A stretch of DNA of 62,462 nt, taken from contig CAZGSX010000004.1 of assembly GCA_964528475.1 (NCBI GenBank), forward strand, positions 1 through 62,462, read 5' to 3'. Of this stretch, positions 18,507 through 34,621 are shown piece by piece; the stretch's first letter is position 1; each line of letters starts with the position of its first letter. The notes under the pieces are model-generated. The model saw only the letters and a list, made by a program, of their open reading frames with translations, had not been told where the DNA came from and made no database searches. The stretch comes from an uncultured Anaerolineales bacterium (GTDB lineage: Bacteria > Chloroflexota > Anaerolineae > B4-G1). Made by a program: the position numbers and the translations under genes.

Positions 18507-20024
18507 TCACTCGATCCAGTCGAAGGTCCGTTGCACCGCCTTTTTCCAGCCCCGATAGAGCTCCTCGCGGGTTTCTCTGTCCATCTGGGGCCGCCATGTC
18601 CTGTCCACCCGCCAGTTTTCGCGCAGCGCTTCCGCATCCTCCCAGAAGCCAACGGCCAGTCCGGAGGCATACGCTGAACCCAGAGCTGTCGTCTCTGAGA
18701 CGACAGGGCGGATCACGGGAACCCCCAGGATGTCCGCCTGAAACTGCATGAGAAGCTCGTTGTGGACCATACCACCATCTACCTTCAGGGCCTCGAGAGC
18801 GACGCCTGAATCCTGCTCCATCGCATCTAGCACCTCGCGGGTCTGATAGGCCGTGGCCTCCAGCGCGGCACGCGCAATATGGTACTTGTTGATATACCTG
18901 GTCAGGCCCACGATCACGCCGCGGGCGTCGCTCCGCCAGTACGGAGCGAACAAGCCGGAGAAAGCAGGGACGAAATAGATGCCCCCGCTGTCCTCCACCT
19001 GGTTGGCGAAGTCCTCCACGTGCTTCGAAAACTCGAACAAATCAAGGTTGTCGCGCAGCCATTGGACCAATGCCCCGGTGATCGCGATGGAGCCCTCCAG
19101 CGCGTATATCGCCTCATCGTCGCCCATCTTGTACGCCAGCGTGGTGAGCAACCCGCTCTCACTGGGGACAGGTTCGGCGCCGGTATTCAGCAGCATGAAG
19201 CAACCGGTGCCGTAGGTGTTCTTTGCCTCTCCTGAACTGTAACAAGTCTGCCCCACGAGGGCGCCCTGCTGATCGCCCAGCGCACCGCAGACCGGGATCG
19301 CCGCCCCAAAGGGACCATCGGCCGTGGTATAACCGTAGATATCCGGGTCGCTGGAAGGTCGAATGCGGGGCAGCATCTGACGTGGAATGCCCATCGTCTC
19401 GAGGATCTCCTCATCCCACTCCAGCGTCTCCAGGTTCATCAGCATGGTGCGGCTGGCGTTGGTCACGTCCGTGATGTGAGCCCCGCCGTCAGGGCCGCCG
19501 GTCATGTTCCAGATTTCCCAAGTGTCGATGGTGCCGAAGATGGCATCACCCCGCTCGGCGGCAGCGCGGAGGCCGTCTACGTTGCGCAGGAGCCAGCTGA
19601 TCTTGGGACCGGAGAAATACGTGGCCAGCGGGAGGCCGACCCGGTCCCGGAAGCGGTCCTGACCGCCGTCCTGGGCCAGCCTGTCGCACGCTTCCTTGGT
19701 GCGCGTGTCCTGCCAGACAACGGCGTTGTGGTACGGCTCTCCAGTGTTCTTGTTCCAGACCAAGGTCGTCTCACGCTGGTTGGTCACACCAACAGAGGCA
19801 ATTTCCTCGGCCTTGACGCCCGTCTTCTGGAGCGTCGCCGTGATCACGTCCCGCGTTCTAGACCAGATCTCCATCGGGTCGTGTTCAACCCAGCCGGCCT
19901 GTGGGTAGATCTGTTCATGTTCCAGCTGATGCGAGCCTACCACCTGCCCACCATGGGTGAAGATCATGAAGCGCGTGCTGGTTGTTCCCTGATCAATCGC
20001 TCCCACGTACTTCTTCTTTGCCAC
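18507..20024 (-). CDS. glpK: glycerol kinase
   Basis: FGGY kinase with [17 protein letters not shown] and strong full-length GlpK similarity. GTG at 20024 has SD AAGGGGGG. The upstream 44 codons of the tracked ORF are unsupported. Confidence 0.95.
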
Positions 20025-22770: not shown

Positions 22771-23760
22771 CTAGTCCCTGAAGAGGATCCAGGCCATGCC
22801 CCAGTTGCCCAATATGAAGAACACCGAAGCGATCAGGGAGGAAATGGCCAATTGCGGAACGCCGGTGAGGAAGTGCCCAATGTTGCATCCTCCTGCGGTC
22901 GAAGCTCCAAGCCCCATCAGCATACCGCCGACCAAGACCTGCACGTACGTGATTGGACTCCTTGGCATACGTAGCTTGAATTCCTTGGTCAGCACGGCGG
23001 CCACAGCGGCGCCGAGTACCGTGCCGATGATCAGCCATCCGCCCCAATTCAGTGGCGCGTTGTCGGTGAATCCGCTCAACACGTTGACCCACCCGGAGGT
23101 GATCCCGAGGCCATACATGCGGCCCGTTGGGATGCTAGTCACAAATCCCACGCCTCCCAGAAGCGCCAACAGTACCGAGGCCACTTTCCAGTCCAGTTTG
23201 GTCTTCCGGTCAGTGGTCTTGGTGCCGAACGCATACAGAAGGAAGAGGGCTGCCAAGATGAGCCCCGGTATCCAAGGATTGAGGCCCAGCACCGACGCCA
23301 GGGTTGGCCCAGATTCCTCTACATAGTACGTCGGGTTATTGGAGGCGCTAATGCTGAACTGTCCGAACCAGTTCTTCCACCAGTTCAATGCGCCCGAGCC
23401 AGTGGCAGAAGCCGTCAGACCAAGGCCAAGGGCCGCAAGCCAGGCGGTGGTCATCCCCTCGCCCACCCGATAGGTGGTTCCAGATGCGCAGCCAGCAGCC
23501 AAGACCATTCCAACGCCAAATATGAGTCCCCCGACTATGTTCGCCGGTATGTTAAGTGGCATCGGATTCATCACCATCCATCCGAATTGTGACAACAGCA
23601 AGAAGATCACGATCTGCAGCGCCAGGGTCAAGACAGCCAGCTTCATCAGGTAGTTATCGCGAAAGATGAGCACGTCCCTGAAAGCGGAGTTGAAGCAGAT
23701 CCGGCCTTGCTGCAGGAGCGCGCCGAATGCGAGCCCCACGATCAATCCCGTCCAAACCAT
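22771..23760 (-). CDS. YeeE/YedE family sulfur-compound (thiosulfate-type) transporter
   Basis: 330 aa, multi-TM. The three conserved Cys loops of the family are present (GRICFNSAF, AAGCASGTTY, TAGGCNIGHF). ATG at 23760 has SD AGAGAGGAG. Confidence 0.9.
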   Translation of the reverse strand: MVWTGLIVGLAFGALLQQGRICFNSAFRDVLIFRDNYLMKLAVLTLALQIVIFLLLSQFGWMVMNPMPLNIPANIVGGLIFGVGMVLAAGCASGTTYRVGEGMTTAWLAALGLGLTASATGSGALNWWKNWFGQFSISASNNPTYYVEESGPTLASVLGLNPWIPGLILAALFLLYAFGTKTTDRKTKLDWKVASVLLALLGGVGFVTSIPTGRMYGLGITSGWVNVLSGFTDNAPLNWGGWLIIGTVLGAAVAAVLTKEFKLRMPRSPITYVQVLVGGMLMGLGASTAGGCNIGHFLTGVPQLAISSLIASVFFILGNWGMAWILFRD

Positions 23761-23906
23761 GTTATGTTGACTCCTCTCTTGTGAATTGAATGAAGTGTGA
23801 TCGTCAAAACCACCATGCACGGACAAAAACACTCGAAGAGCCTTATATGCTCAACCCGCCAAGTGGACCGCTACACGTGATACGATCACGAAGCCCAACA
23901 AAGGGA

Positions 23907-24149
23907 CTACTTAGTGACCTTGACGTAGATGTTCCACTCCGAGTTGCCTACCTCTTCTATCTCGAGGACCTCGCTTCCCGCCTTTCGCACCGTCTCGGGG
24001 ATGCGTTCCTTGGACATTGGATAGTCAACCTGGATCATGATGATATCTCCGTCTTTGCCCTTCTTGACGGCCCTCTTTGCCTCGACGTCGGGTATCGGGC
24101 ACACCTCACCGCGCACATCAATCGTCTTGGTGGGTTCATACGCTGCCAT
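23907..24149 (-). CDS. tusA: TusA/SirA-like sulfurtransferase
   Basis: 80 aa. Signature DVRGEVCPIPDVEAKRAV (CPxP motif). SD AAGGAG. Confidence 0.9.
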   Translation of the reverse strand: MAAYEPTKTIDVRGEVCPIPDVEAKRAVKKGKDGDIIMIQVDYPMSKERIPETVRKAGSEVLEIEEVGNSEWNIYVKVTK

Positions 24150-24189
24150 TGTATTTTCTCCTTATCAACTCTGATTCTGCCGTAATGTA

Positions 24190-25298
24190 TGCGCCTTGCA
24201 TCACCATCGCTTGTTCAAGCTCCGCCATCGTCATTCCATCCTCACATAGGCCCCCCCATCGAAGTACCTGTGTGCTCCCTTCAATTGTCGTCTCGGATTC
24301 CCACAGCAGAGAGGAGAGGCAGGACGACCCTGTGACCAGACGGCCGTCTGTCTCCCCTGGAGAATCCAGCTGATGCACGCTGTAGTGCATTTTACATCAA
24401 GAATCATACTTTTCCAAGTCCGGCGGCTACCACAGCCGAACCGCTGCATTCCCAGAGCGACGTGGGACCGAACCTGCCATATGTCCACTCCGTTCGCTCA
24501 CCGCATCCTTGCGCAGCAAGCTGAGGCGGCCCCCTAGTTACTGCTTGGCTCTCAAGAGCAAATGTGGAACAAGTGGGCCGTCCGCCATCCTTGCAGTTGG
24601 TTTTGCTGAGCAGTCTGTATAGGTCCACAGCCTACAGCTTTGGGGATCTGTTACCTTCAGCTGCTGTCTTGATTGTCCCTGATTCAGGCCTGCGCGCCCA
24701 GCTGGACCGCGTCCCAGGGGCGGATCGAGCTTGGTTAGTACGGACGGGAGATACTCCACCAGCGTGACCTCCACGCCGCGCCGATTCAACGCCTCGGCTA
24801 TCTCCAGGCCGATGTACCCACCGCCCACCACCACGGCGGAGGCTGGCGACTGCTCTACGAGGTAGTCGCGCACGGCGAAGCCACCACCCATCGTGCGCAG
24901 GAAGAGCACCCCCTTCTGCTCCAAACCGTCGCTGGGCGGGTGCGCCGGGACGGCTCCGGTGGCAATCACGAGGTTGTCATACGATATGCAGCGCCCCCGC
25001 CCGGCGTCGTCCATTGCTGTGACCGTCTTGCCATTCGCGTCGATGATTTGCGCAGTGTGCGCCAGCAGCAGGTGGGATCCCCCGGGCCTCGATGTCTCTC
25101 GCCTTGCGGTGGGCCAGGTCGCGCCAATGGGCGACCTGGCCGCCCAGCCACGGCAGTCCGCAGATGAAGTAGTTGGGTTACCGGTCAGCGACGACCAGGG
25201 TAACCGCGCCGCGGGTTTACCTCCCGCGCTCGCAGGGCGGCGCTGATGCTCGCATCACTTCCGCCGATGATCAGCAGGTGACCGTCCTCTCTGCCCAT
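24190..25298 (-). pseudogene. decayed CoA-disulfide reductase/NADH oxidase-family flavoprotein with a rhodanese-like tail
   Basis: The N-terminus HLLIIGGSDASISAALRARE is followed by frameshifts. TAA at 25180-25178 stands where Tyr is expected before PNYFICGLPW (the redox Cys motif). A middle block is intact: YDNLVIATGAVP...VVVGGGYIGLEIAEALNRRGVEVTLVE. Further shifts and stops follow, then a degenerate rhodanese-like stretch (RLVTGSSCLSS...VLRWGG). About 1.1 kb remains of an expected roughly 1.6 kb. Confidence 0.75.
24389..24417 (-). promoter_or_regulatory. candidate promoter of the tusA-yeeE-dsrEFH unit
   Basis: Minus strand: TTGGAA (24417-24412), 17 nt, TAAAAT (24394-24389). It sits in a local AT-rich patch inside the decayed oxidoreductase gene. 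Confidence 0.45.
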
Positions 25299-25361
25299 GA
25301 TCTCCCACCCCCAGCTCTCACCAATTGGCCCTCGATCGTCACGCCCTCAAGGAGTGTGTGA

Positions 25362-25988
25362 TTACCGTACCCCACTTGAAACCCCTCTCACGCACCTTCT
25401 CCAGCTTGTCGAGCGACTCTGGACTGTCCAGCACCAGCCGGTAGCGGATCTGAAGCATCGCTGGGGTTCTTCGCGGCGGTCACCCTCTACTTTTGCGCGT
25501 ACGCCGTCCACGTGCAGACGCATCTTCTCGCCCAGCGCGTTAACGTTAGTGATCTGGCAGACTGGTGGGGCTGCCACCAGCGTCTCCAAGGCCGACTTTA
25601 CGCCCGGCCCGCCCTCAACCCAGGTCTCCAGGGGGATGCCAGGCCGGACCACCAATCCGCCGGTGCTGTGCGGCCCGTAGGTAACCTTATGCCCGGCGAA
25701 GGCAAGGAGATCAATCCCCTCGCCTCCATGTCGATAGGACACGCCCCGGGCTTCTGCCCCGCGTCCACCAGAAACAGGATATCGTGATTCCGGCAGATCC
25801 CCTCACTGCGGGCACAGGGAGAATAGCGCCCAGCGGCTCTCGTCGGCGATGCCCAGCGCCTCCTCCTCACGCCTGTGGCCGCCCCGCCCCGGTGTCGCCC
25901 CCACGTCGCGCATGAAGTGAACCACCGCGCGGTAGACGGCCTCCGGCTTCGGCCAGCTGGTCGCCGCCTTATCCAGGTAGACTGTCAC
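25362..25988 (-). pseudogene. decayed class V aminotransferase (NifS/cysteine desulfurase-like)
   Basis: The N-terminus VYLDKAATSWPKPEAVYRAV...GRGGHR ends in a stop after about 60 codons. Other frames carry HDILFLVDAGQKPGACPID and IDLLAFAGHKVTYGPHSTGGLVVRPG, including the PLP-Lys context. About 135 internal codons are missing. Confidence 0.7.
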
Positions 25989-26044
25989 GTCGTTCTCGCA
26001 CCCTTGACTGCCGCTGGATCTGCACTGGCGACCCCGTATCTCAC

Positions 26045-26599: not shown

Positions 26600-27053
26600 G
26601 CACTGCATAGGATGTGAACGAGACGATCCGCTCTGCTCGGAGACCCTACCCTTGTTCGTTCATCATAGACTGCCGGATCACGACGCGTCACTGACTCTGA
26701 CTCCCTCTTCGAATCCCCCAGATGGCACATCGGTAGCCAGGTCCGGTCTCTCGGCTGCGCTCCGCACGCGGGGCAGTACCGCCCGGTAGAAGAAGTCCCT
26801 CGCACCCTCGACATTCGACCAGCGAGGCCACCACACCCAGCACCATGAACGTGACCGCCAGGCCAACGGCGAACGTCAGTGACAGTGTAAACGAACGGCG
26901 CCGCGACAACTCCACCGATCCACCTAAGTAGCCGATGATCAATGGGATCATCGCCACGTTGCAGGGACCGATGCTGGTGATCACCCCGCCCAGGAAGACA
27001 AGCCGGTAGGCTAGGCGGGAGCTCGTCTTTAGGATCTCAAGGTTGAAGGGCAT
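26600..27053 (-). pseudogene. truncated CcdA/DsbD-type thiol-disulfide transporter
   Basis: The first 70 or so codons match CcdA TM1-TM2 (FLGGVITSIGPCNVAMIPLIIGYL...FAVGLAVTFMVLGVVASLV). The frame then degenerates. Only about 450 nt are available before the next gene, against roughly 700 expected. Confidence 0.6.
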
Positions 27054-27059
27054 CGCACC

Positions 27060-27674
27060 TCACTCCTCGCCCATCGTCGCCAGTTGCTGGCGCAGCGCAT
27101 CCGCCTCCATCACCCCCACATGTCCCTCCACCTCCCCTTCGCGATCGACGAAGATCAGGGTGGGGATGGCGCGTACGGTGGCGCGCTGGAGCAGATTCCG
27201 ATTCCGCTCATCGTAGACGTCGACGTCCACCAGCGCCACCGAGTCAGAGAAACCGGGGTACACCTCCTCAACAATCCCGGTCATCCTCACGCATTGCACG
27301 CAGGTGTCGGAGTGAAAGAAGACAAACACCGGCTTACGGGCACTCAGAAGGCGATCCAACCGCGCCTCGGGCAACAGATCCTGGGTCGCGGAAGACGCCC
27401 CTGTGCTCGCTGCCTCCGTGGTAGCCCAGCCCCGGGACGTCGAGCTACCAGATTGCGATGCCGTGGGGATGGCCTGCTCGGGCGGCGCGGTCGGTTCAGC
27501 TGTGACGGAGTCCCTCAATGCAGCCGGGGGTTGCCGCGTCTTCAGGAACAGGACAGCGCCAACCAAGAGGAAAACTCCTGCGACGACAACAACCTGGCAG
27601 AGCGGCAACCGGGCCCACATGCCCCGTCCGGAGGATTCACGGGCTTCACGACAAGAGCGGGATTTTCGCTTCAT
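27060..27674 (-). CDS. membrane-anchored thioredoxin-like protein (TlpA/ResA-like topology, CVQC site)
   Basis: ATG at 27674 overlaps the upstream stop (ATGA). It has one N-terminal TM helix (LCQVVVVAGVFLLVGAVLFL), a Pro/Thr/Ser linker and a thioredoxin fold (VFVFFHSDTCVQCVRM...AIPTLIFV). Confidence 0.8.
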   Translation of the reverse strand: MKRKSRSCREARESSGRGMWARLPLCQVVVVAGVFLLVGAVLFLKTRQPPAALRDSVTAEPTAPPEQAIPTASQSGSSTSRGWATTEAASTGASSATQDLLPEARLDRLLSARKPVFVFFHSDTCVQCVRMTGIVEEVYPGFSDSVALVDVDVYDERNRNLLQRATVRAIPTLIFVDREGEVEGHVGVMEADALRQQLATMGEE

Positions 27675-29653
27675 ACCAGTGTAACCACCATCCAGCCGGC
27701 CAACAGGAAGAACAGCGCCGCCGTCGCCAGCTTGACCTTGGCCGTGTGTCGGTGGATGAGGAGACCCAGCTGCTGAGACGTCGTTCCGAAGTACGCCAGC
27801 ACGAAGACGACCACCAGCGGCAGAATGAACATCAGGTTGTAAAGCACCAGATAGAACCCGGCCTGCGCCTGCATCTCCGGAACGCCTAGGACGAAGAGAA
27901 TGGTTGGGAGGTAGACCTGTCCGGTGCAAGCGAGCTCGATGAGCGAGACCACAACCCCCGTGACAAAGGTCACCGGCACGAAGGCCCTCGCGTCGGCCCT
28001 CTCGCGGATCGCCTGGTTAACTCGCCGACGTAGCCGGGTCGGCATGGCGAGACGCATCTCCGTCGCCTTCCCGGTACGAGCCTGCCACCAGTCGTAGAGG
28101 CTGCCGGCAGCCAGGAGGAGACAGAGCGCCGCGGTGAAGCCGTAGATCCAGCGGCTCACGGCATCCAGGAAGGGCAACGCGGCCAGAAACTTCAGCACGC
28201 CGAAGCCGACCCCGAGATACGTCAGGAAGACACCTAGCGCAAACGCTCCGCCGGCCAGCAGCACCTGCCGACCCTCCCGACCCACAAAAGCCAGATAGGA
28301 GATGAAGAAGACTAACGTCGCGAACGCGCAGGGGTTGAGCCCGTCCACGAGCCCCGCGGCGAGCACCGTGATCAGGCTGAAGGAACGGAAACGCTCGATA
28401 ATGCCCGAGACCGCATCGCCACCGGTCACGTCCGACCCTGAACATATCGGCTCGGCGCCGGTCTCCGCGTAGCGGGCAAGCAGATCTTCCAGGCTGTTGG
28501 TATGCAGCTCCTCCCCTACCAGCGCCTCATCACCGACGAAGATAGCCGGTGCGGTCAACCGCTTGCCCACCGGTACGCCGGCCCTTTCCCCCAGGCGTTC
28601 AGACAGTGGCGCGTCCTCGCGGACGTCGAGCGTGCAGACGTTCAGCTGCGGATACCGCTTCCGTAGGTAATTCAAGGCGAGCTGTACTCGGTCGCAGTCT
28701 GGGCAGCCCACCTGGTAGAAGTAGGCTACGTGGATGGGAGCCCCATTCGCCTCCTCCGGTGAGGCAGCCTCAGGCGCGGGCGTCGGTTCCACAACCGGGA
28801 GACCCACGCCGCCCATCTTCAAGTACGACTCCACCAGCTGCGGCAGCTCCGCCCGCGCCTCCTCCTCTCCCGCCAAGACGTGGTCGCCGATGAAAATCAC
28901 AGGCATCTCCGCCCGCGTCACACCGTAGCGCCGCTCGAGCGTACGTAAGAGATTGTAGTTCTCGGTCGAGCCCTCGACGTCCCGCTGGTCGACAACGAGC
29001 CTCGATCCATAGGTCTTCTCTAGAGGCGCGATGACCTCCTCCTCCACTGTCACGCATTCGGGGCACAGCCGGTCGTAGAAGAAGAGGACATGGGCCACGG
29101 CATCTTTCGTGCCTACGACCAGGTCGTCGTCACACTCAGGGCAATATTTGGCCGTCGCCGTAGGGCCCGGGGTGGGCTCATCTACGCTCGGCGTCGGCGT
29201 CCTCTCCAAGCCGTCCAACAGTCCGGGGATGTCGGGGTAGACCACGCCGCCCGCCGCTAGATGCTGCTCCACTAGCCTCGGCAGTTTCTCTGCGATCTGC
29301 CCGGAACCGGTCAGGACCGTGTCGCCGATGAACAACATAGGCACGCCCTGCCGTCCCGCCGGCACTTGATAAGCCTCGAGCGCGGCCAACCACACCTCGT
29401 AGCTCGCTGGATCGGTGATCTCGATAAGCCGGATGACCAGGCGATCACCAAATTTCTCGTCCAGCGAGGGCAGGTGCTCCTCCATCACCTCGTGACAGTG
29501 CGGACAGCCTTCAGACCAGAATAGAACCGCCCGAACCACCGGGTCATCGGCGCGGACGGCAAGGACCGTCCCAGCGAACAGGAGAGTCAGAAGAAGACCC
29601 ACAGACGGTCTCAGCCGTCTCGCCTGGAGCGATGCCACTGGCTTGTCGTTCAT
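27671..29653 (-). CDS. exported triple thioredoxin-fold protein fused to a DsbD_2-like membrane domain
   Basis: Signal peptide, then three paralogous about 100-aa domains (WSEGCPHC, RLCPECV with an extra YCPEC, QVGCPDC). Each ends in a (I/L)F(I/V)GD...L(V/L)E motif. A 6-TM domain follows with GLNPCAF and ELACTGQVYLP. ATG at 29653 has SD GAGAGAGG. Confidence 0.8.
   Translation of the reverse strand: MNDKPVASLQARRLRPSVGLLLTLLFAGTVLAVRADDPVVRAVLFWSEGCPHCHEVMEEHLPSLDEKFGDRLVIRLIEITDPASYEVWLAALEAYQVPAGRQGVPMLFIGDTVLTGSGQIAEKLPRLVEQHLAAGGVVYPDIPGLLDGLERTPTPSVDEPTPGPTATAKYCPECDDDLVVGTKDAVAHVLFFYDRLCPECVTVEEEVIAPLEKTYGSRLVVDQRDVEGSTENYNLLRTLERRYGVTRAEMPVIFIGDHVLAGEEEARAELPQLVESYLKMGGVGLPVVEPTPAPEAASPEEANGAPIHVAYFYQVGCPDCDRVQLALNYLRKRYPQLNVCTLDVREDAPLSERLGERAGVPVGKRLTAPAIFVGDEALVGEELHTNSLEDLLARYAETGAEPICSGSDVTGGDAVSGIIERFRSFSLITVLAAGLVDGLNPCAFATLVFFISYLAFVGREGRQVLLAGGAFALGVFLTYLGVGFGVLKFLAALPFLDAVSRWIYGFTAALCLLLAAGSLYDWWQARTGKATEMRLAMPTRLRRRVNQAIRERADARAFVPVTFVTGVVVSLIELACTGQVYLPTILFVLGVPEMQAQAGFYLVLYNLMFILPLVVVFVLAYFGTTSQQLGLLIHRHTAKVKLATAALFFLLAGWMVVTLV
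28427..29545 (-). repeat. three tandem thioredoxin-fold domain repeats inside the fusion CDS
   Basis: Approximate repeat bounds are 29545-29222, 29104-28772 and 28729-28427. Shared pattern: hydrophobic beta strand, CPxC, then PMLFIGDTVLTG / PVIFIGDHVLAG / PAIFVGDEALVG, then LPRLVEQHL / LPQLVESYL / LEDLLARY. Confidence 0.7.
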
Positions 29654-29829
29654 CGAACCTCTCTCACGCAATCAGACACTACGGTAGAAGTCACGCACTG
29701 GATCAACTCCCAAACAGAGCCGCACAACGGAGAACAGACTAAGATCTCTACGTCTCCTCTCTGCAGATCGATGTCGCAACAGCCGCGCCCACTGTCTCCA
29801 GTTTCCAGGGTAACCGACGGCATCATCCT

Positions 29830-30250
29830 ACGACCAGCGCACCGGGGCCTGCCCCCAGAGGCGCCCAACGGATGCGAGCAAGTTCAAGCAACGCACCTTG
29901 GCGCGCAAGCACCGCCGGAACACCGACCACGCTTCCGGCAGATCCGCTCTCTCCCGATAGTCGTCCTTTGCACGTTCACCCGGTCTGAGCGAAACCGCAT
30001 GAACAAGGCACAATTCGTGGACGGGATGCAACATTCCTGTGCTGCGCACCCCAGGTTGCACCATAGTCGGATTCGTGGATTGCAGCAAGCATCTTCTCGA
30101 TCTCTGCCTCACTAAAGCTTCGCCCTACGAAACTGACCCTCACAACCCCCCGTGAGAAGCGACGTTGGCGTACGCGGGCGGCATCCCAAACGGACTGCTC
30201 CGCCGGGGCTCCTGCCGCCTGGCTGGAAACCTCGTAGGCTCGAGAGGATC
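29830..30250 (-). pseudogene. possible relic of a tyrosine recombinase (integrase)
   Basis: One frame reads ...RSFSEAEIEKMLAAIHES... and an adjacent frame reads ...AVSLRPGE...ADLPEAWSVFRR. These resemble the start of the catalytic domain (LTxEEIxxLLAA ... TGLRxGE ... DLxxGxLxVRR). The frames are broken and the C-terminal HxxR/Tyr part is absent. Confidence 0.3.
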
Positions 30251-30293
30251 TAGAGTGATCTGGACGGCGGCGGCTGGGTTAGCTGCGAGCTGC

Positions 30294-30560
30294 CTACTTC
30301 AACCCCGCCTCGCGCAGAGCGCCCACCAGACTCTCGTGGCTAGGTGCCAAGCCAACAAACTTGACCAACTCCCCCACGACCAGCGCAGGTGCGTTGCCGA
30401 TGGCATATTCCTCCCACTCGTTGTCGCCTGGTCCCGTATGGAAGGTGATGGTCACCTGATCGCCAAATTCGTCCTCAATGTCTCTGAGCAGCCGCTTGAC
30501 TGCCACACCTCCCGAGCAGGGAGGTATGGAGACAAATGCTTCGATCGTTACTTGAGACAT
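30294..30560 (-). CDS. mini-thioredoxin paralog 4 (CSGG, single Cys)
   Basis: 88 aa. The start overlaps paralog 3 by 13 nt, with SD GGGAGG. Its layout matches its neighbours (VSIPPCSGGVAV...APALVVGE...LVGALREAGLK). Confidence 0.7.
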   Translation of the reverse strand: MSQVTIEAFVSIPPCSGGVAVKRLLRDIEDEFGDQVTITFHTGPGDNEWEEYAIGNAPALVVGELVKFVGLAPSHESLVGALREAGLK

Positions 30561-30817
30561 AGACCAGCCTCCCTGAGTGCATTGTTGAGCGTGGCCTCGC
30601 TGGGGCACATGCCCTCAATACGGATGGACCCATTGACGACCGCCGCCGGGACACAGAAGAGCTGGTAGGCCTCGAACTTCTCCAATCCCTCGGCGCCTTC
30701 GTAGATGGTGAGCTCCAAATCATCTTCATACCTAGCTGCGACGCGCTCTGTTAGCTCAATGATCGCCACACAGCCTGGGCACGGGGGATCACCGCTGAAA
30801 ACCTCCAGTTTCACCAT
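30548..30817 (-). CDS. mini-thioredoxin paralog 3 (CPGC)
   Basis: 89 aa. Has SGDPPCPGCVAI, VPAAVVNG and the C-terminal LNNALREAGL shared with paralog 4. Confidence 0.8.
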   Translation of the reverse strand: MVKLEVFSGDPPCPGCVAIIELTERVAARYEDDLELTIYEGAEGLEKFEAYQLFCVPAAVVNGSIRIEGMCPSEATLNNALREAGLCLK

Positions 30818-30820
30818 ATC

Positions 30821-31078
30821 CTAGTCTCCTAACTTGGTCTCAATGACGGACTTCAGCCTGTCGGCCGGTACTACCTTGCCTTTGCCAAGGACTTCGTCGC
30901 CGATGACGACCAGTGGGGTGGTCATAAGCCCATACTGCTCGGCCTCGGGTGCCAAGGCGTCGAGTTCCACAACCTCGACCCGACCGGGAAACTGGTCGGC
31001 TGCCTCTTGAGCCTCACGCTTCGCCCTCCTGCAGTTGGCGCAGGGCGGGGTGGTGCCAAAGACCTTGATCTGAAGCAT
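30821..31078 (-). CDS. mini-thioredoxin paralog 2 (CANC)
   Basis: 85 aa. Has GTTPPCANCRRA and TTPLVVIGDEVLGKGKVVP. Thioredoxin_3-like. Confidence 0.8.
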   Translation of the reverse strand: MLQIKVFGTTPPCANCRRAKREAQEAADQFPGRVEVVELDALAPEAEQYGLMTTPLVVIGDEVLGKGKVVPADRLKSVIETKLGD

Positions 31079-31127
31079 GCTCTTTCTCGCTCCCTTGTTC
31101 CTATAGTCGCGACTCTCGCCGGACGGT

Positions 31128-31373
31128 TCACAAACCCCGTGCCGTTCGGATCCAATCAGCGATCTCCTCCTTGCGAGGTATGCGCCCCGTTGCCTTCACC
31201 TCCTCGTCGATGACGAGGGCAGGTGTGCTCATCACGTCATAGGCCAGGATGGCGTCCATGTTCTCCAGCTTGGTCACGGTGACCTCAACACCCATCTCGT
31301 GAGCCGCTTCCCGAGCCAGAGCCTCCACTCGCTTGCACTTGGGGCATCCCATCCCCAGAATCTTGATCTCCAT
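31128..31373 (-). CDS. mini-thioredoxin paralog 1 (Thioredoxin_3 / redox-active disulfide protein 2 type, CPKC)
   Basis: 81 aa. Has KILGMGCPKCKRVE and STPALVIDEEVKATGRIP, the canonical form of this family. SD GGGAGGAAG. Confidence 0.85.
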   Translation of the reverse strand: MEIKILGMGCPKCKRVEALAREAAHEMGVEVTVTKLENMDAILAYDVMSTPALVIDEEVKATGRIPRKEEIADWIRTARGL

Positions 31374-31835: not shown

Positions 31836-33317
31836 TCACTTTGTCTCCTCCGCCGTTACCAGAATCCGGCGATGACGACTGGTCCACGCAGCGAGAACGG
31901 CCAGCGACGCGAGAGCCCCGGCCAGAATCGCTCCGATGACCCAGCCGCTCATGCCCTCCAGCCAACCACCAAACAGCAGCCCTGCCAGCGTACTGAAGAT
32001 GGTCACCAGCACGACGTACACCGCTGTTTTCTTTCGCCCGATGACCGTGTTGGTGATCAGGATTGACTGCAGGCTCAGCTCCGGATCGGCCAACAGGTAA
32101 GCCAGTAGGACCCCGCGATGCATGCCCAGCGAGAGGAACGTCCGTGCGATGGGGACTTCCACCAGCGTGGGGAAGTACATAAAGACGCCGAAGAGCACCC
32201 CAGCCAAGTTAGCCAACACTGTGTTCCGACCAGCGAGGGTCTCAATCCACGTCCTGGGGATGATGGCCCGGGCCATGCCTGCCAGAAAGACACCTACTAA
32301 CAGCAGGGGGATGATCTGCTTCACGAAGCGCCACATCTCCCACAGCCATTCGCGTATCTGATATTCGTCGAAGGCATTAATCGCCATCCACCACACCGCT
32401 CCAATGAGCACGACCTCGGCCGCCAAGCGACCAGACATGCCAATCGTCAGGCCCGTCTCTAGTGTCGTCACGTTGAACGACGCGACGAGCAGGGTTAGCG
32501 TGATTAGACCTAGCGCGCCGTACGTCCAGCGGTTGAACCCGCGATCCACGTCGTTCAGCCCCAGCCACGCCGTGACTGCGATGAGAACCAGCAGACCGAT
32601 TAGGAAGACTCCGTGCACGCTCACGCCCTCGATGCCCATCGATGGATTCGGTGGCACCACTCCGTCTAGCCAAGTCTGCAAAGAGCTGGCCCACGATCCC
32701 GGCACGGTGAAGGTGGCGTAACTCCTCGTCAGAAGATCAACCTGCAACGTCCCCGCGATAAGCACGCCCAGTAGCAGGACGAAGAAGATCCAGGTGGATG
32801 CAGGAACACCGGCTCCTTGCACGAAGGCGTTCGCCTCATTGGTGGCTCTGTTATGTGCTCTGTCATCTTCGCGGAAGAACCAAGCCATGAGCATTCCGAT
32901 GCCGATGCCAAACACGACCGACAAAATCACCCGCGCGATGGCGATGTCCATGCCGATCATCGCGCCCGTGAACGTGATCGCTAGAATGTTGACCGCCGGA
33001 CCGACGAAGAGGAAGGTGATAGCTGGACCAAGCCCAGCACCCTTCTTGTAGATGCTGGCGAACAGGGGCATGATGGTGCACGAACAGACTGCCAACACGA
33101 AGCCGCCGATCGCCGACATGGGATAGGACAACCACCGTGGCGCATCCCGTCCGAGATACTTGGTGATCGCCTCTTTGGGGATTAGCGCTGCCAGCGCACC
33201 AGCGATGAAAAACGCCGGTAGCAAACACAACAGCACGTGTGCGGCCAGATAGGCTGCAAGGCTTCCCAAGCCTGCCTGTAGTAACATCCTTATCGTCTCC
33301 AGAATTGCCACGTTCAA
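31836..33317 (-). CDS. UPF0718/YraQ-family permease (ArsP-like CSC motif)
   Basis: 493 aa, multi-TM. Has LAVCSCTIMPLFASIYKKGAGLGPAITFLFVGPAVN, typical of the predicted-permease family usually paired with ArsR and Thioredoxin_3 genes. Confidence 0.85.
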   Translation of the reverse strand: MNVAILETIRMLLQAGLGSLAAYLAAHVLLCLLPAFFIAGALAALIPKEAITKYLGRDAPRWLSYPMSAIGGFVLAVCSCTIMPLFASIYKKGAGLGPAITFLFVGPAVNILAITFTGAMIGMDIAIARVILSVVFGIGIGMLMAWFFREDDRAHNRATNEANAFVQGAGVPASTWIFFVLLLGVLIAGTLQVDLLTRSYATFTVPGSWASSLQTWLDGVVPPNPSMGIEGVSVHGVFLIGLLVLIAVTAWLGLNDVDRGFNRWTYGALGLITLTLLVASFNVTTLETGLTIGMSGRLAAEVVLIGAVWWMAINAFDEYQIREWLWEMWRFVKQIIPLLLVGVFLAGMARAIIPRTWIETLAGRNTVLANLAGVLFGVFMYFPTLVEVPIARTFLSLGMHRGVLLAYLLADPELSLQSILITNTVIGRKKTAVYVVLVTIFSTLAGLLFGGWLEGMSGWVIGAILAGALASLAVLAAWTSRHRRILVTAEETK

Positions 33318-33386: not shown

Positions 33387-33826
33387 TCAGCCGCCAATCT
33401 CCTCAACGGCGTTGGGGGTCTTCTCTATCGCCTCGGCCGTGGAGGGGTTCCATGGGATCCAGCCAGACGACACCGTCGTCGAAGTCGACACCTGCGTCGC
33501 ACAGCGCATCCTTGAACATCTTGCGCTGCATCGTGGGAGCGCCACCGCCGACGATGAGCTTCGCACCCGACTTGGCATAGTCGTGCCAGAAGCTATCCCC
33601 GTCCTCCACACAAAGCTGCGGGCGAACGATATCGTACTCCACATCCAGTTCGTTGCGTACATAGTTCATGAGCGGCCATAGGTCCAACTCGTCAAATCAG
33701 GGCACTCGCCGGTGCAGATGCACATCATGAAGCCCGGCTTTCCGTCCTCGGCGATCTGATAGTCTACCTTCTCAGACTCAATGTCTCTCGGTGGACGTGT
33801 TGAACAGACGCTACCCCGCCACATCA
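33387..33826 (-). pseudogene. Cys-rich small protein gene, apparently frameshifted
   Basis: ORF a (MWRGS...GFMMCICTGECPD) stops at 33673. ORF b (33687-33403) continues in another frame as ...DLWPLMNYVRNELDVEYDIVRPQLCVEDGDSFWHDYAKSGAKLIVGGGAP... Adding one T to the T3 run (plus-strand AAA 33694-33696) fuses them as ...ECPDFDELDLWPL... A second shift near the 3' end is possible. Loose resemblance to FlpD/MvhD-type Fe-S modules. Confidence 0.45.
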
Positions 33827-33969
33827 GCAGCGTCACGCCCGGGGGGCGGGCGCTTCAGCCCCGGTCCCTGCGAGCAATGGCAGAGGCAGCACCACGTATG
33901 CGTGGACACCCTCACAGGCGGGTTAGCTCTTGGCACTCGTCCTGCACTCCTGGCGAAAGCGCTTTGCAC

Positions 33970-34173
33970 TCAGCGCTGCTTCCTCTCGCAGTCGATGCAG
34001 AGGTCCGTCTCCCGGTTCGTGCGGTATTCCTTGCCGCAGCCGGGGCACGTGACTCTGCGCAGGCCATCGTTCTTCTTCGGCCGCGGTCGCAGCTCCGGCG
34101 GGAGAGCGCCAAAACCGTCTTGCAGGCACGTGCATTCTAGCGAAGCCTCCCTCTTGTCATCGCCGCTGCTCAT
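33970..34173 (-). CDS. small zinc-ribbon protein
   Basis: 67 aa with CPGC...(13 aa)...CIDC. The ATG overlaps the arsR stop (ATGA), implying translational coupling. Confidence 0.6.
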   Translation of the reverse strand: MSSGDDKREASLECTCLQDGFGALPPELRPRPKKNDGLRRVTCPGCGKEYRTNRETDLCIDCERKQR

Positions 34174-34553
34174 ATCATCTCCCCCACGGGCAAACTCTCA
34201 CCGGCTCGCGCGCCACCGCTCTCCTTGATTGCCATCGCTTCGCAGCGTGGGCAGGAGCACGCCTCGACAGGTCCGCGCTCCGCCGGCGGCCCCAGTAAGG
34301 CCTCCAGCACTCTTTCGACACCGGGGTCATCAAGGCTGTAGTAGACGAACAACCCTTCTCGGCGATCGGTCACCAGGTCGGCGTCCCGGAGCTGGCTGAG
34401 TTGCTGAGAGACATAGGGCTGGGGACGACGCACGCGCCCCTGAAGGTGACAGACGCAGGCCTCGCCGAGCCGAAGCTCGTCCACTATCTGAAGCCGTACA
34501 GGATGGGAGAGGACCTGCAGGACGTCGGACACACGCTGATATCGATTGCTCAT
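34170..34553 (-). CDS. ArsR/SmtB family transcriptional regulator (alpha-3 CVC plus C-terminal CSCPRC)
   Basis: Winged-helix sequence LSHPVRLQIVDELRLGEACVCHLQG...SQQLSQLRDADLV. ATG at 34553 has SD GGAAGGAA. Confidence 0.9.
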   Translation of the reverse strand: MSNRYQRVSDVLQVLSHPVRLQIVDELRLGEACVCHLQGRVRRPQPYVSQQLSQLRDADLVTDRREGLFVYYSLDDPGVERVLEALLGPPAERGPVEACSCPRCEAMAIKESGGARAGESLPVGEMI

Positions 34554-34573
34554 GCTTATATTCCTTCCGGATA

Positions 34574-34621
34574 ATATGCAGCTCATCGCATATAGTATAC
34601 CCTCGTTGCTGCATTTGTCAA
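34574..34621 (-). promoter_or_regulatory. arsR-operon promoter with an abutting palindromic operator
   Basis: Minus strand: TTGACA (34621-34616), 16 nt, TATACT (34599-34594). This is immediately followed by ATATGC-N8-GCATAT (34593-34574), which covers the expected start site. Confidence 0.55.

Follow-up and report, generated by a model that had tools for sequence, protein, structure and literature searches.

A predicted transmembrane thiol-disulfide relay with three exported glutaredoxin-like domains in an uncultured Anaerolineales bacterium

What might a bacterium do with a protein in which three exported CxxC domains precede a membrane core that itself carries two cysteines? The question is raised by P0001, an open reading frame (ORF) on the minus strand of a 62,462-nucleotide stretch of DNA (the window) from an uncultured Anaerolineales bacterium (assembly GCA_964528475.1, contig CAZGSX010000004.1). 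A preliminary description had taken the protein for a possible rebuilt DsbD that stands in for a decayed neighbouring CcdA. Our analysis, which draws on sequence comparison and structural modelling, suggests that P0001 is rather probably a self-contained transmembrane relay for thiol-disulfide reductant, of the DsbD superfamily.

P0001 is a real, intact gene for a membrane protein. It encodes 660 amino acids plus a stop codon from an ATG at position 29653, upstream of which lies the ribosome-binding site GAGAGAGG, and homologues of 659-661 amino acids favour this start over a TTG six codons upstream. The ORF, the paralogy of its domains and the modelled fold confirm the first impression of three CxxC domains and a six-helix core in a single 660-residue protein. 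The CxxC motifs also lie where they had been placed (CPHC at residue 50, CPEC at 171 in the linker between the first and second domains, CPEC at 197 and CPDC at 317), as do the two membrane cysteines, in GLNPCAF (C442) and ELACTGQVYLP (C576). The features of the gene are given below, with confidence as the predicted local distance difference test (pLDDT).

27671..29653, minus strand: whole gene P0001, encoding a signal peptide, three glutaredoxin-like domains and a CcdA-like membrane domain
29549..29653, minus strand: putative signal peptide, residues 1-35 (K4, R12, R13 and R15; hydrophobic core S17-V33; AVRA/DD)
29243..29545, minus strand: ecto-domain 1 (D1), residues 37-137, of the distal type; CPHC at 50-53, cis-Pro candidate P105, pLDDT 90-97
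29132..29143, minus strand: extra CPEC, residues 171-174, in the D1-D2 linker (linker pLDDT <50)
28805..29101, minus strand: ecto-domain 2 (D2), residues 185-283, a duplicate of the distal type; CPEC at 197-200, P251
28451..28741, minus strand: ecto-domain 3 (D3), residues 305-401, of the membrane-proximal type; CPDC at 317-320 (family consensus C[R/Q]EC), P369
27674..28426, minus strand: membrane domain, residues 410-660, an amphipathic helix and six transmembrane helices
28328..28330, minus strand: codon of C442, in NPC
27926..27928, minus strand: codon of C576, in ACTGQ
28343..28345, 28091..28093 and 27935..27937, minus strand: codons of the invariant acidic residues D437, D521 and E573

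A HMMER scan of 1.84 billion representatives of clusters at 50% identity, made with the membrane domain, recovered a family of 3,294 clusters at E ≤1e-3 (1,068 at E ≤1e-30), in which this domain is nearly always C-terminal. In its structural model (predicted template modelling score, pTM, 0.70), residues 410-660 form six long helices, the first and fourth of which are broken at N440-P441-C442 and at C576-T-G-Q. The predicted cytoplasmic loops hold 10 lysines and arginines against 2 in the outside loops, a distribution that fits the N-out/C-out topology required by an exported N-terminal part. Of 148 family representatives, 146-147 keep C442 and C576. D437, E573 and D521 are equally invariant, whereas CcdA lacks acidic residues in the columns aligned with them; D437 and E573 stand three to five residues before each membrane cysteine, in a pseudo-symmetric arrangement.

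The family profile was compared by hhalign with a profile of 32 CcdA proteins from Chloroflexota genomes. The membrane domain aligned with CcdA from end to end over 207 columns (85.8% probability, E 5.4e-6), in a register that sets NPC on the SPC of CcdA and ACTGQ on its TPCvGP, with both cysteines aligned, and the controls (a reversed profile and 20 column shuffles) scored at most 22 over at most 68 columns. The alignment, the cysteine register and the controls together argue that the core belongs to the DsbD superfamily as a remote branch, with CcdA as its closest relative there. On this evidence the proposal of a six-helix DsbD/CcdA-superfamily core with both catalytic cysteines stands.

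The ecto-domains are paralogous to one another by BLASTP (D1-D2, E 2e-18 and 35% identity; D2-D3, 2e-10; D1-D3, 3e-6). In a whole-protein AlphaFold2 model built on 75 homologues, each has the glutaredoxin-type order beta-alpha-beta-alpha-beta-beta-alpha at a pLDDT of ~90-97, with disordered linkers between them. The cysteine pairs C50/C53, C197/C200 and C317/C320 are invariant in the family alignment, as are P105, P251 and P369, the prolines before strand 3, and all three domains thus combine the core order, the CxxC at the start of helix 1 and the candidate cis-Pro of a thioredoxin-fold oxidoreductase. Against the glutaredoxin family PF00462, the whole protein scored 26.9 bits, D3 alone 23.8 and D1 alone 18.7; the score criterion is 22.9, and glutathione-binding residues are a separate criterion. 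The Foldseek neighbours of the whole model were multi-thioredoxin proteins, namely ERdj5, PDI, ERp44, calsequestrin and archaeal PDO. As read from the sequence, the N-terminus has the features of a Sec signal peptide, with a lysine- and arginine-rich n-region, a 17-residue hydrophobic core and AVRA/DD; its hydropathy peaks at 1.9 at residue 17, and the model has a helix at residues 15-27. Such a peptide would place D1-D3 outside the cytoplasmic membrane. The exported thioredoxin- or glutaredoxin-fold domains of the preliminary description are thus predicted here as well, the fold by the model and the export by the signal-peptide features and loop charges.

The segment FIGD...L(V/L)E, said to end each unit, is broadly as described, with LFIGD...LPRLVEQ in the first, IFIGD...LPQLVES in the second and IFVGD...LEDLLA in the third. 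The idea that these domains form an internal triplication did not survive. Three domains are a minority state in a family with one to four: among the best 150 clusters, two ecto-domains were counted in 77, one in 47, three in 14 and four in 1, with none detected in 12, mostly fragments. The membrane-proximal domain is present in every family member. In a tree built from 128 domains, taken from proteins that have between one and four of them, the membrane-proximal (last) domains came together (59 of 60), as did the distal and middle domains (68 of 68, support 0.80). The middle domains formed a clade of their own (support 0.99), the nearest neighbour outside that clade was always a first domain, and D1 of P0001 sits in the clade of first domains. 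The tree therefore describes a membrane-proximal receiver with a duplicated distal module, two distinct types, and not a simple triplication. The types also differ in motif: proximal domains carry C[R/Q]EC, with glutamate third in 125/224, first domains often carry CPHC (68/157, with histidine in 97/146) and middle domains are variable. The additional CxxC of the linker is found in 46 of 81 three-domain relatives. By analogy, the split between proximal and distal domains may mirror the gamma-to-alpha division of labour in DsbD.

These observations are consistent with a model in which cytoplasmic thioredoxin would reduce the C442-C576 pair, which would in turn reduce the proximal domain D3, acting in the part of DsbD gamma. 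D3 could then reduce the distal domains D2 and D1, in the part of DsbD alpha, and these would hand electrons to exported substrates. Metalloids or thiol-reactive compounds would be the stress that induces the relay.

The last step of this model leans on the company that P0001 keeps. The gene belongs to a same-strand cluster that begins with a promoter and an ArsR gene and continues through an ArsP-family permease, four mini-thioredoxins, the fusion and an anchored thioredoxin to a CcdA remnant; beyond the remnant lie an FMN reductase, broken genes, TusA and a YeeE-type sulfur transporter. The main members are as follows.

34594..34621, minus strand: sigma-70-like promoter, TTGACA-16-TATACT, 11/12 consensus matches, just upstream of the ArsR gene
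34170..34586, minus strand: ArsR-family regulator with a CVC motif, at the head of the cluster (PF01022, E 3e-9)
31836..33317, minus strand: ArsP_1-family permease with a CSC motif (PF03773, E 1e-66)
30294..31373, minus strand: four tandem mini-thioredoxin genes of the Thioredoxin_3 type, their order kept in L001 and L002
27060..27674, minus strand: anchored thioredoxin P0002, 204 amino acids, CVQC, with an ATGA overlap with the fusion gene (PF00085, E 5.5e-11)
26688..27053, minus strand: CcdA remnant, codons 1-79 homologous (26816..27053), then an out-of-register tail

L001 and L002 are the loci of the two closest relatives (87% and 74% protein identity), in which the order of the ArsR, ArsP, Thioredoxin_3, fusion, thioredoxin and CcdA genes is identical. 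Among 84 loci of the family the same neighbours recur in 13-20. In the nearer relatives, ArsR, ArsP, Thioredoxin_3, a PF04060 Fe-S protein, an ArsC-type LMWP, the anchored thioredoxin and CcdA are recurrent. ACR3/SBF and cation-efflux genes also neighbour the fusion in relatives. As the preliminary description stated, the next gene is a membrane-anchored CVQC thioredoxin coupled by ATGA; its sequence resembles the DsbD gamma region (NCBIfam NF001419, positions 467-571), with the membrane anchor N-terminal. Because the cluster is headed by ArsR and holds an ArsP-type permease, mini-thioredoxins and an anchored thioredoxin, the physiological role of the relay is likely to be the keeping of extracytoplasmic thiols in the reduced state under metalloid or thiol-reactive stress, and a part in protecting thiols against arsenicals is plausible.

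Several points weigh against a reductant relay of the DsbD superfamily. The superfamily placement depends on a single profile-profile comparison of moderate probability together with the motif register. The isolated membrane domain matched no Pfam family at E ≤10, PF02683 (DsbD_TM) and PF13386 (DsbD_2) included; a search of PDB sequences with the family-alignment profile returned weak thioredoxin matches and no CcdA, and Foldseek found nothing better than E 0.34 for the membrane domain among solved structures. Its sole curated match was to ArsG (NF040495), at 18.6 bits against a cut-off of 200 (E 1e-3, positions 5-221 of 225). D437 and E573, which are absent from CcdA, could point to ion or metalloid binding. 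The pTM of the whole-protein model is 0.44 and its inter-domain geometry unreliable, so that no contact between D3 and the membrane cysteines can be read from it. The distal domain carries CPHC, the motif of the oxidase DsbA, and the more distant two-domain members among the 84 loci have none of the ars-type neighbours.

The same searches mean that the label 'DsbD_2-like', given to the membrane part at the outset, has to be dropped. PF13386 matched one of 81 family members (E 0.017; gathering cut-off 24.9 bits) and PF02683 likewise one of 81 (E 1.6e-4; cut-off 27.1 bits), which leaves the family outside both. A further candidate family, SfLAP (PF11139), was set aside, since it too matched only one of 81 members and is rare in the phylum.

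The account given in the preliminary description, that P0001 is a rebuilt DsbD that functionally replaced CcdA and feeds the anchored CVQC thioredoxin and cytochrome c maturation, is compatible with the relay and makes a narrower claim on role and origin; we regard it as possible but doubtful. Its starting point is sound, in that the neighbouring CcdA is truly truncated. The first ~79 codons of the remnant match PF02683 positions 6-69 of 219, and in L001 and L002 the pair of fusion and thioredoxin genes is followed by an intact CcdA of 225 amino acids. Identity between the window and L001 is 92% as far as CcdA codon 79 and resumes inside the next small ORF, so the truncation is a deletion of ~514 bp, with no counterpart in L001 or L002, the closest relatives with sequence there. 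The local deletion is real in the assembly. The genome, which is 98% complete, holds no other PF02683 or PF13386 match, and the ATGA coupling of fusion and thioredoxin is found in L002 as well. The genome also encodes Ccm system I, in which CcmF carries a fused redoxin (CcmG-like) domain, and a second member of the fusion family:

L128, 5862-8393 (contig C31): CcmF-redoxin fusion, 843 amino acids, with a C-terminal AhpC-TSA/Redoxin (CcmG/TlpA-like) domain
L129, 3-1610, minus strand (contig C211): second fusion paralogue, 536 amino acids, two-domain, with CEHC and CQLC

On contig C31 the CcmE-CcmF-...-CcmA-CcmB-CcmC cluster comes after an ArsR-family gene (L128:1855-2241) and the gene of a 1036-residue FAD/CCG-domain oxidoreductase (L128:2183-5293). 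The C211 paralogue is 55% identical to P0001 in the membrane domain and adjoins a SufBD-type Fe-S assembly gene.

In the class, a sample of 151 genomes holds evidence on both sides of the replacement account. By Fisher tests that ignore phylogeny, and hence shared ancestry, the fusion is enriched in genomes that lack CcdA (15/21 against 46/130 of the others, p 0.003), and 11 genomes have Ccm and the fusion and no CcdA. However, the enrichment is strongest where Ccm is missing, with the fusion in 10 of the 11 genomes without Ccm/Ccs (PF01578; p 0.0005), on which ground cytochrome c maturation was rejected as the main role of the fusion; cytochrome c maturation as such is probably not what the relay serves. 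Six Ccm-positive genomes (families f51 and f71) have neither CcdA nor the fusion, so that Ccm in this class does not strictly depend on either. As an origin for P0001, replacement finds no support: the closest relatives keep both the fusion and an intact CcdA, and CcdA adjoins the fusion in 13/84 loci, from which it follows that the fusion is older than the loss of CcdA and coexists with it. It also has to be set against the account that 2% of the genome is missing and that neighbouring genes are decayed too, so that the CcdA loss may be mere erosion of the island. What stands as a possibility is a weaker form, backed by the enrichment in CcdA-less genomes, in which the fusion may be able to cover for CcdA where the latter has been lost, as in this genome. 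After the deletion, P0001 and its two-domain paralogue on C211 are the only DsbD-type conduits left here, and the anchored thioredoxin and the redoxin domain fused to CcmF may by now rely on them as well. We read the fusion as an independent system that usually coexists with CcdA and is not tied to cytochrome c maturation.

The main rival to the relay itself is metalloid binding or translocation, which we judge unlikely. On this view the CxxC domains would be an exported array that binds trivalent arsenicals or other thiophilic metal(loid)s and exchanges them with the membrane cysteines, and the protein would be a transporter or buffer like MerP/MerT or ArsG and not a conduit for electrons. 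The genes around the fusion suit it, from the CVC-bearing ArsR and the ArsP-family permease to the ArsC-type LMWP, ACR3/SBF and cation-efflux genes of the relatives, and so do the curated ArsG match and the invariant acidic residues that flank the membrane cysteines; the superfamily to which the DsbD family belongs also includes metal-ion transporters. Yet ArsG was rejected as the nearest family: hhalign against nine ArsG-type proteins of the same phylum (six above the NF040495 cut-off) gave 14% (E 0.0019) and left the second cysteine unaligned, and the CcdA alignment, which holds both cysteines, is better. Many family members have no ars-type neighbours, and the ecto-domains retain the full redox-active thioredoxin architecture, cis-Pro position included.

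It is very improbable that the distal CPHC domains form or shuffle disulfides in the manner of DsbA or PDI while the membrane domain merely resets them: the prevalence of CPHC in the distal domain, the PDI-like fold matches and the lack of a competing conventional oxidase partner (searches of this genome found neither DsbB nor VKOR) would suit such a role, but the same lack leaves no evident oxidant, no DsbD-type membrane domain is known to take electrons from outside, and an isomerase kept reduced by the membrane domain would be a special case of the relay and not a separate mechanism.

The cluster around P0001 holds some further features. The ArsR gene overlaps by ATGA with a gene for a 67-residue Zn-ribbon protein, and between the latter and the ArsP permease, at 33403-33836 on the minus strand, two cysteine-rich ORFs overlap in different frames (one with CICTGECP); they have no Pfam match and may be a single frameshifted gene. 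The fourth mini-thioredoxin (30294-30560, minus strand) has a single cysteine, in PPCSGG, against the CxxC of the others, and has no Pfam match, and its 88-residue gene is kept in L001 and L002. The 640 nucleotides directly upstream of the fusion gene (29654-30293) contain no plausible ORF or Rfam match; the same gap measures 235 nucleotides in L001 and 432 in L002. RNA elements were sought between positions 20000 and 36000 of the window, with no Rfam match. On the minus strand at 24150-26040 there are gene fragments only: part of a Pyr_redox_2 protein (24538..25014, which covers profile positions 93-186 of 291) and the N-terminal 49 residues of a class-V aminotransferase or cysteine desulfurase (25803..25988). 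Like the CcdA deletion, these give the distal stretch of the ArsR-headed cluster an eroded look. The strand run closes with a YeeE/YedE-type sulfur transporter (PF04143) paired with TusA (22771-24149, minus strand).

As well as differing from classical DsbD, as was recognised at the outset, the architecture of P0001 is unlike that of ScsB and CcdA. CcdA, of which PDB entries 5VKV and 2N4X are nuclear magnetic resonance structures, shares with the P0001 core six predicted helices, termini that both lie outside, and a cysteine in the first and fourth helix beside a break at proline or glycine. P0001, in contrast, has NPC and ACTGQ in place of PCxxP-type motifs, carries D437 and E573 and scores below every curated threshold; the fusion family adds a signal peptide and one to four exported glutaredoxin-fold domains, whereas CcdA has no soluble domain. 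With Escherichia coli DsbD, the fusion shares a single polypeptide that combines a membrane core with a cysteine pair and exported carriers of two kinds, proximal and distal. In DsbD the alpha domain has an immunoglobulin fold and gamma is C-terminal to an eight-helix core. The carriers of P0001 are all of glutaredoxin fold and all N-terminal, their number in the family is one to four, the core has six helices and the protein ends at the last of them, so that it falls outside DsbD. ScsB is similar in its enlarged N-terminal exported part of tandem domains, which in ScsB-alpha have a tandem immunoglobulin fold; P0001 has thioredoxin folds only and lacks the C-terminal gamma domain that ScsB has, and is therefore not an ScsB; it also comes from Chloroflexota. 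ScsB has been described as a third DsbD class, linked to envelope stress (copper) and found in Proteobacteria and Chlamydia (Cho et al. 2012, PMC3322552), and the fusion is missing from the paper in which the classes DsbD, CcdA and ScsB were set out (PMC3322552). In ars operons, determinants named 'CcdA + thioredoxin + redox-active disulfide protein 2' have been reported as separate genes, their function untested (Castillo and Saier 2010, PMC2963123); these share with the P0001 locus the ArsR-type company of CcdA, thioredoxin, Thioredoxin_3 and ArsP, but no fused multi-domain protein is described there. PDI, ERdj5 and PDO, the best Foldseek matches, resemble P0001 in their tandem thioredoxin-fold domains with CxxC, but are soluble and have no membrane core; the template modelling scores (TM-scores) to them are low (0.1-0.3) because only single domains superpose.

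The fusion family is large, mostly from Anaerolineae and unstudied. It accounts for at least 585 loci in GTDB species genomes, nearly all of Anaerolineae or other Chloroflexota (the cultured Pelolinea submarina MO-CFX1 is among them), and it is present in 61 of the 151 sampled genomes of the class (roughly 40%). The nearer relatives of P0001 are the members that recur in arsenic-type islands. Its members bear the public names 'hypothetical protein' or, from JGI, 'CcdA/glutaredoxin', and a full-text literature search found no paper describing the fusion.

Overall, P0001 would represent a new architectural variant of transmembrane reductant transfer, common in one phylum and never studied. The three DsbD-type architectures known so far have been studied mainly in Proteobacteria and Firmicutes, and the fusion would be a fourth way to build such a relay, in a family of ~3,300 clusters that is invisible to Pfam and NCBIfam. 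Its modular outer array, in which one proximal receiver is joined by up to three distal modules and at least one, amounts to a natural experiment on how thiol relays are lengthened, and its recurrence in ArsR-headed islands suggests a connection, open to test, between arsenic stress and the upkeep of envelope thiols. We put forward, as a tentative suggestion, a fourth class of the DsbD superfamily, defined by an N-terminal, copy-variable array of exported glutaredoxin-fold domains (a proximal 'receiver' that is fixed and distal 'delivery' modules that can expand) and serving ArsR-controlled extracytoplasmic defence against thiol-reactive metalloids in anaerobic Chloroflexota. If this were true, the CcdA, thioredoxin and mini-thioredoxin genes of ars islands, for so long without an explanation, would gain a function.

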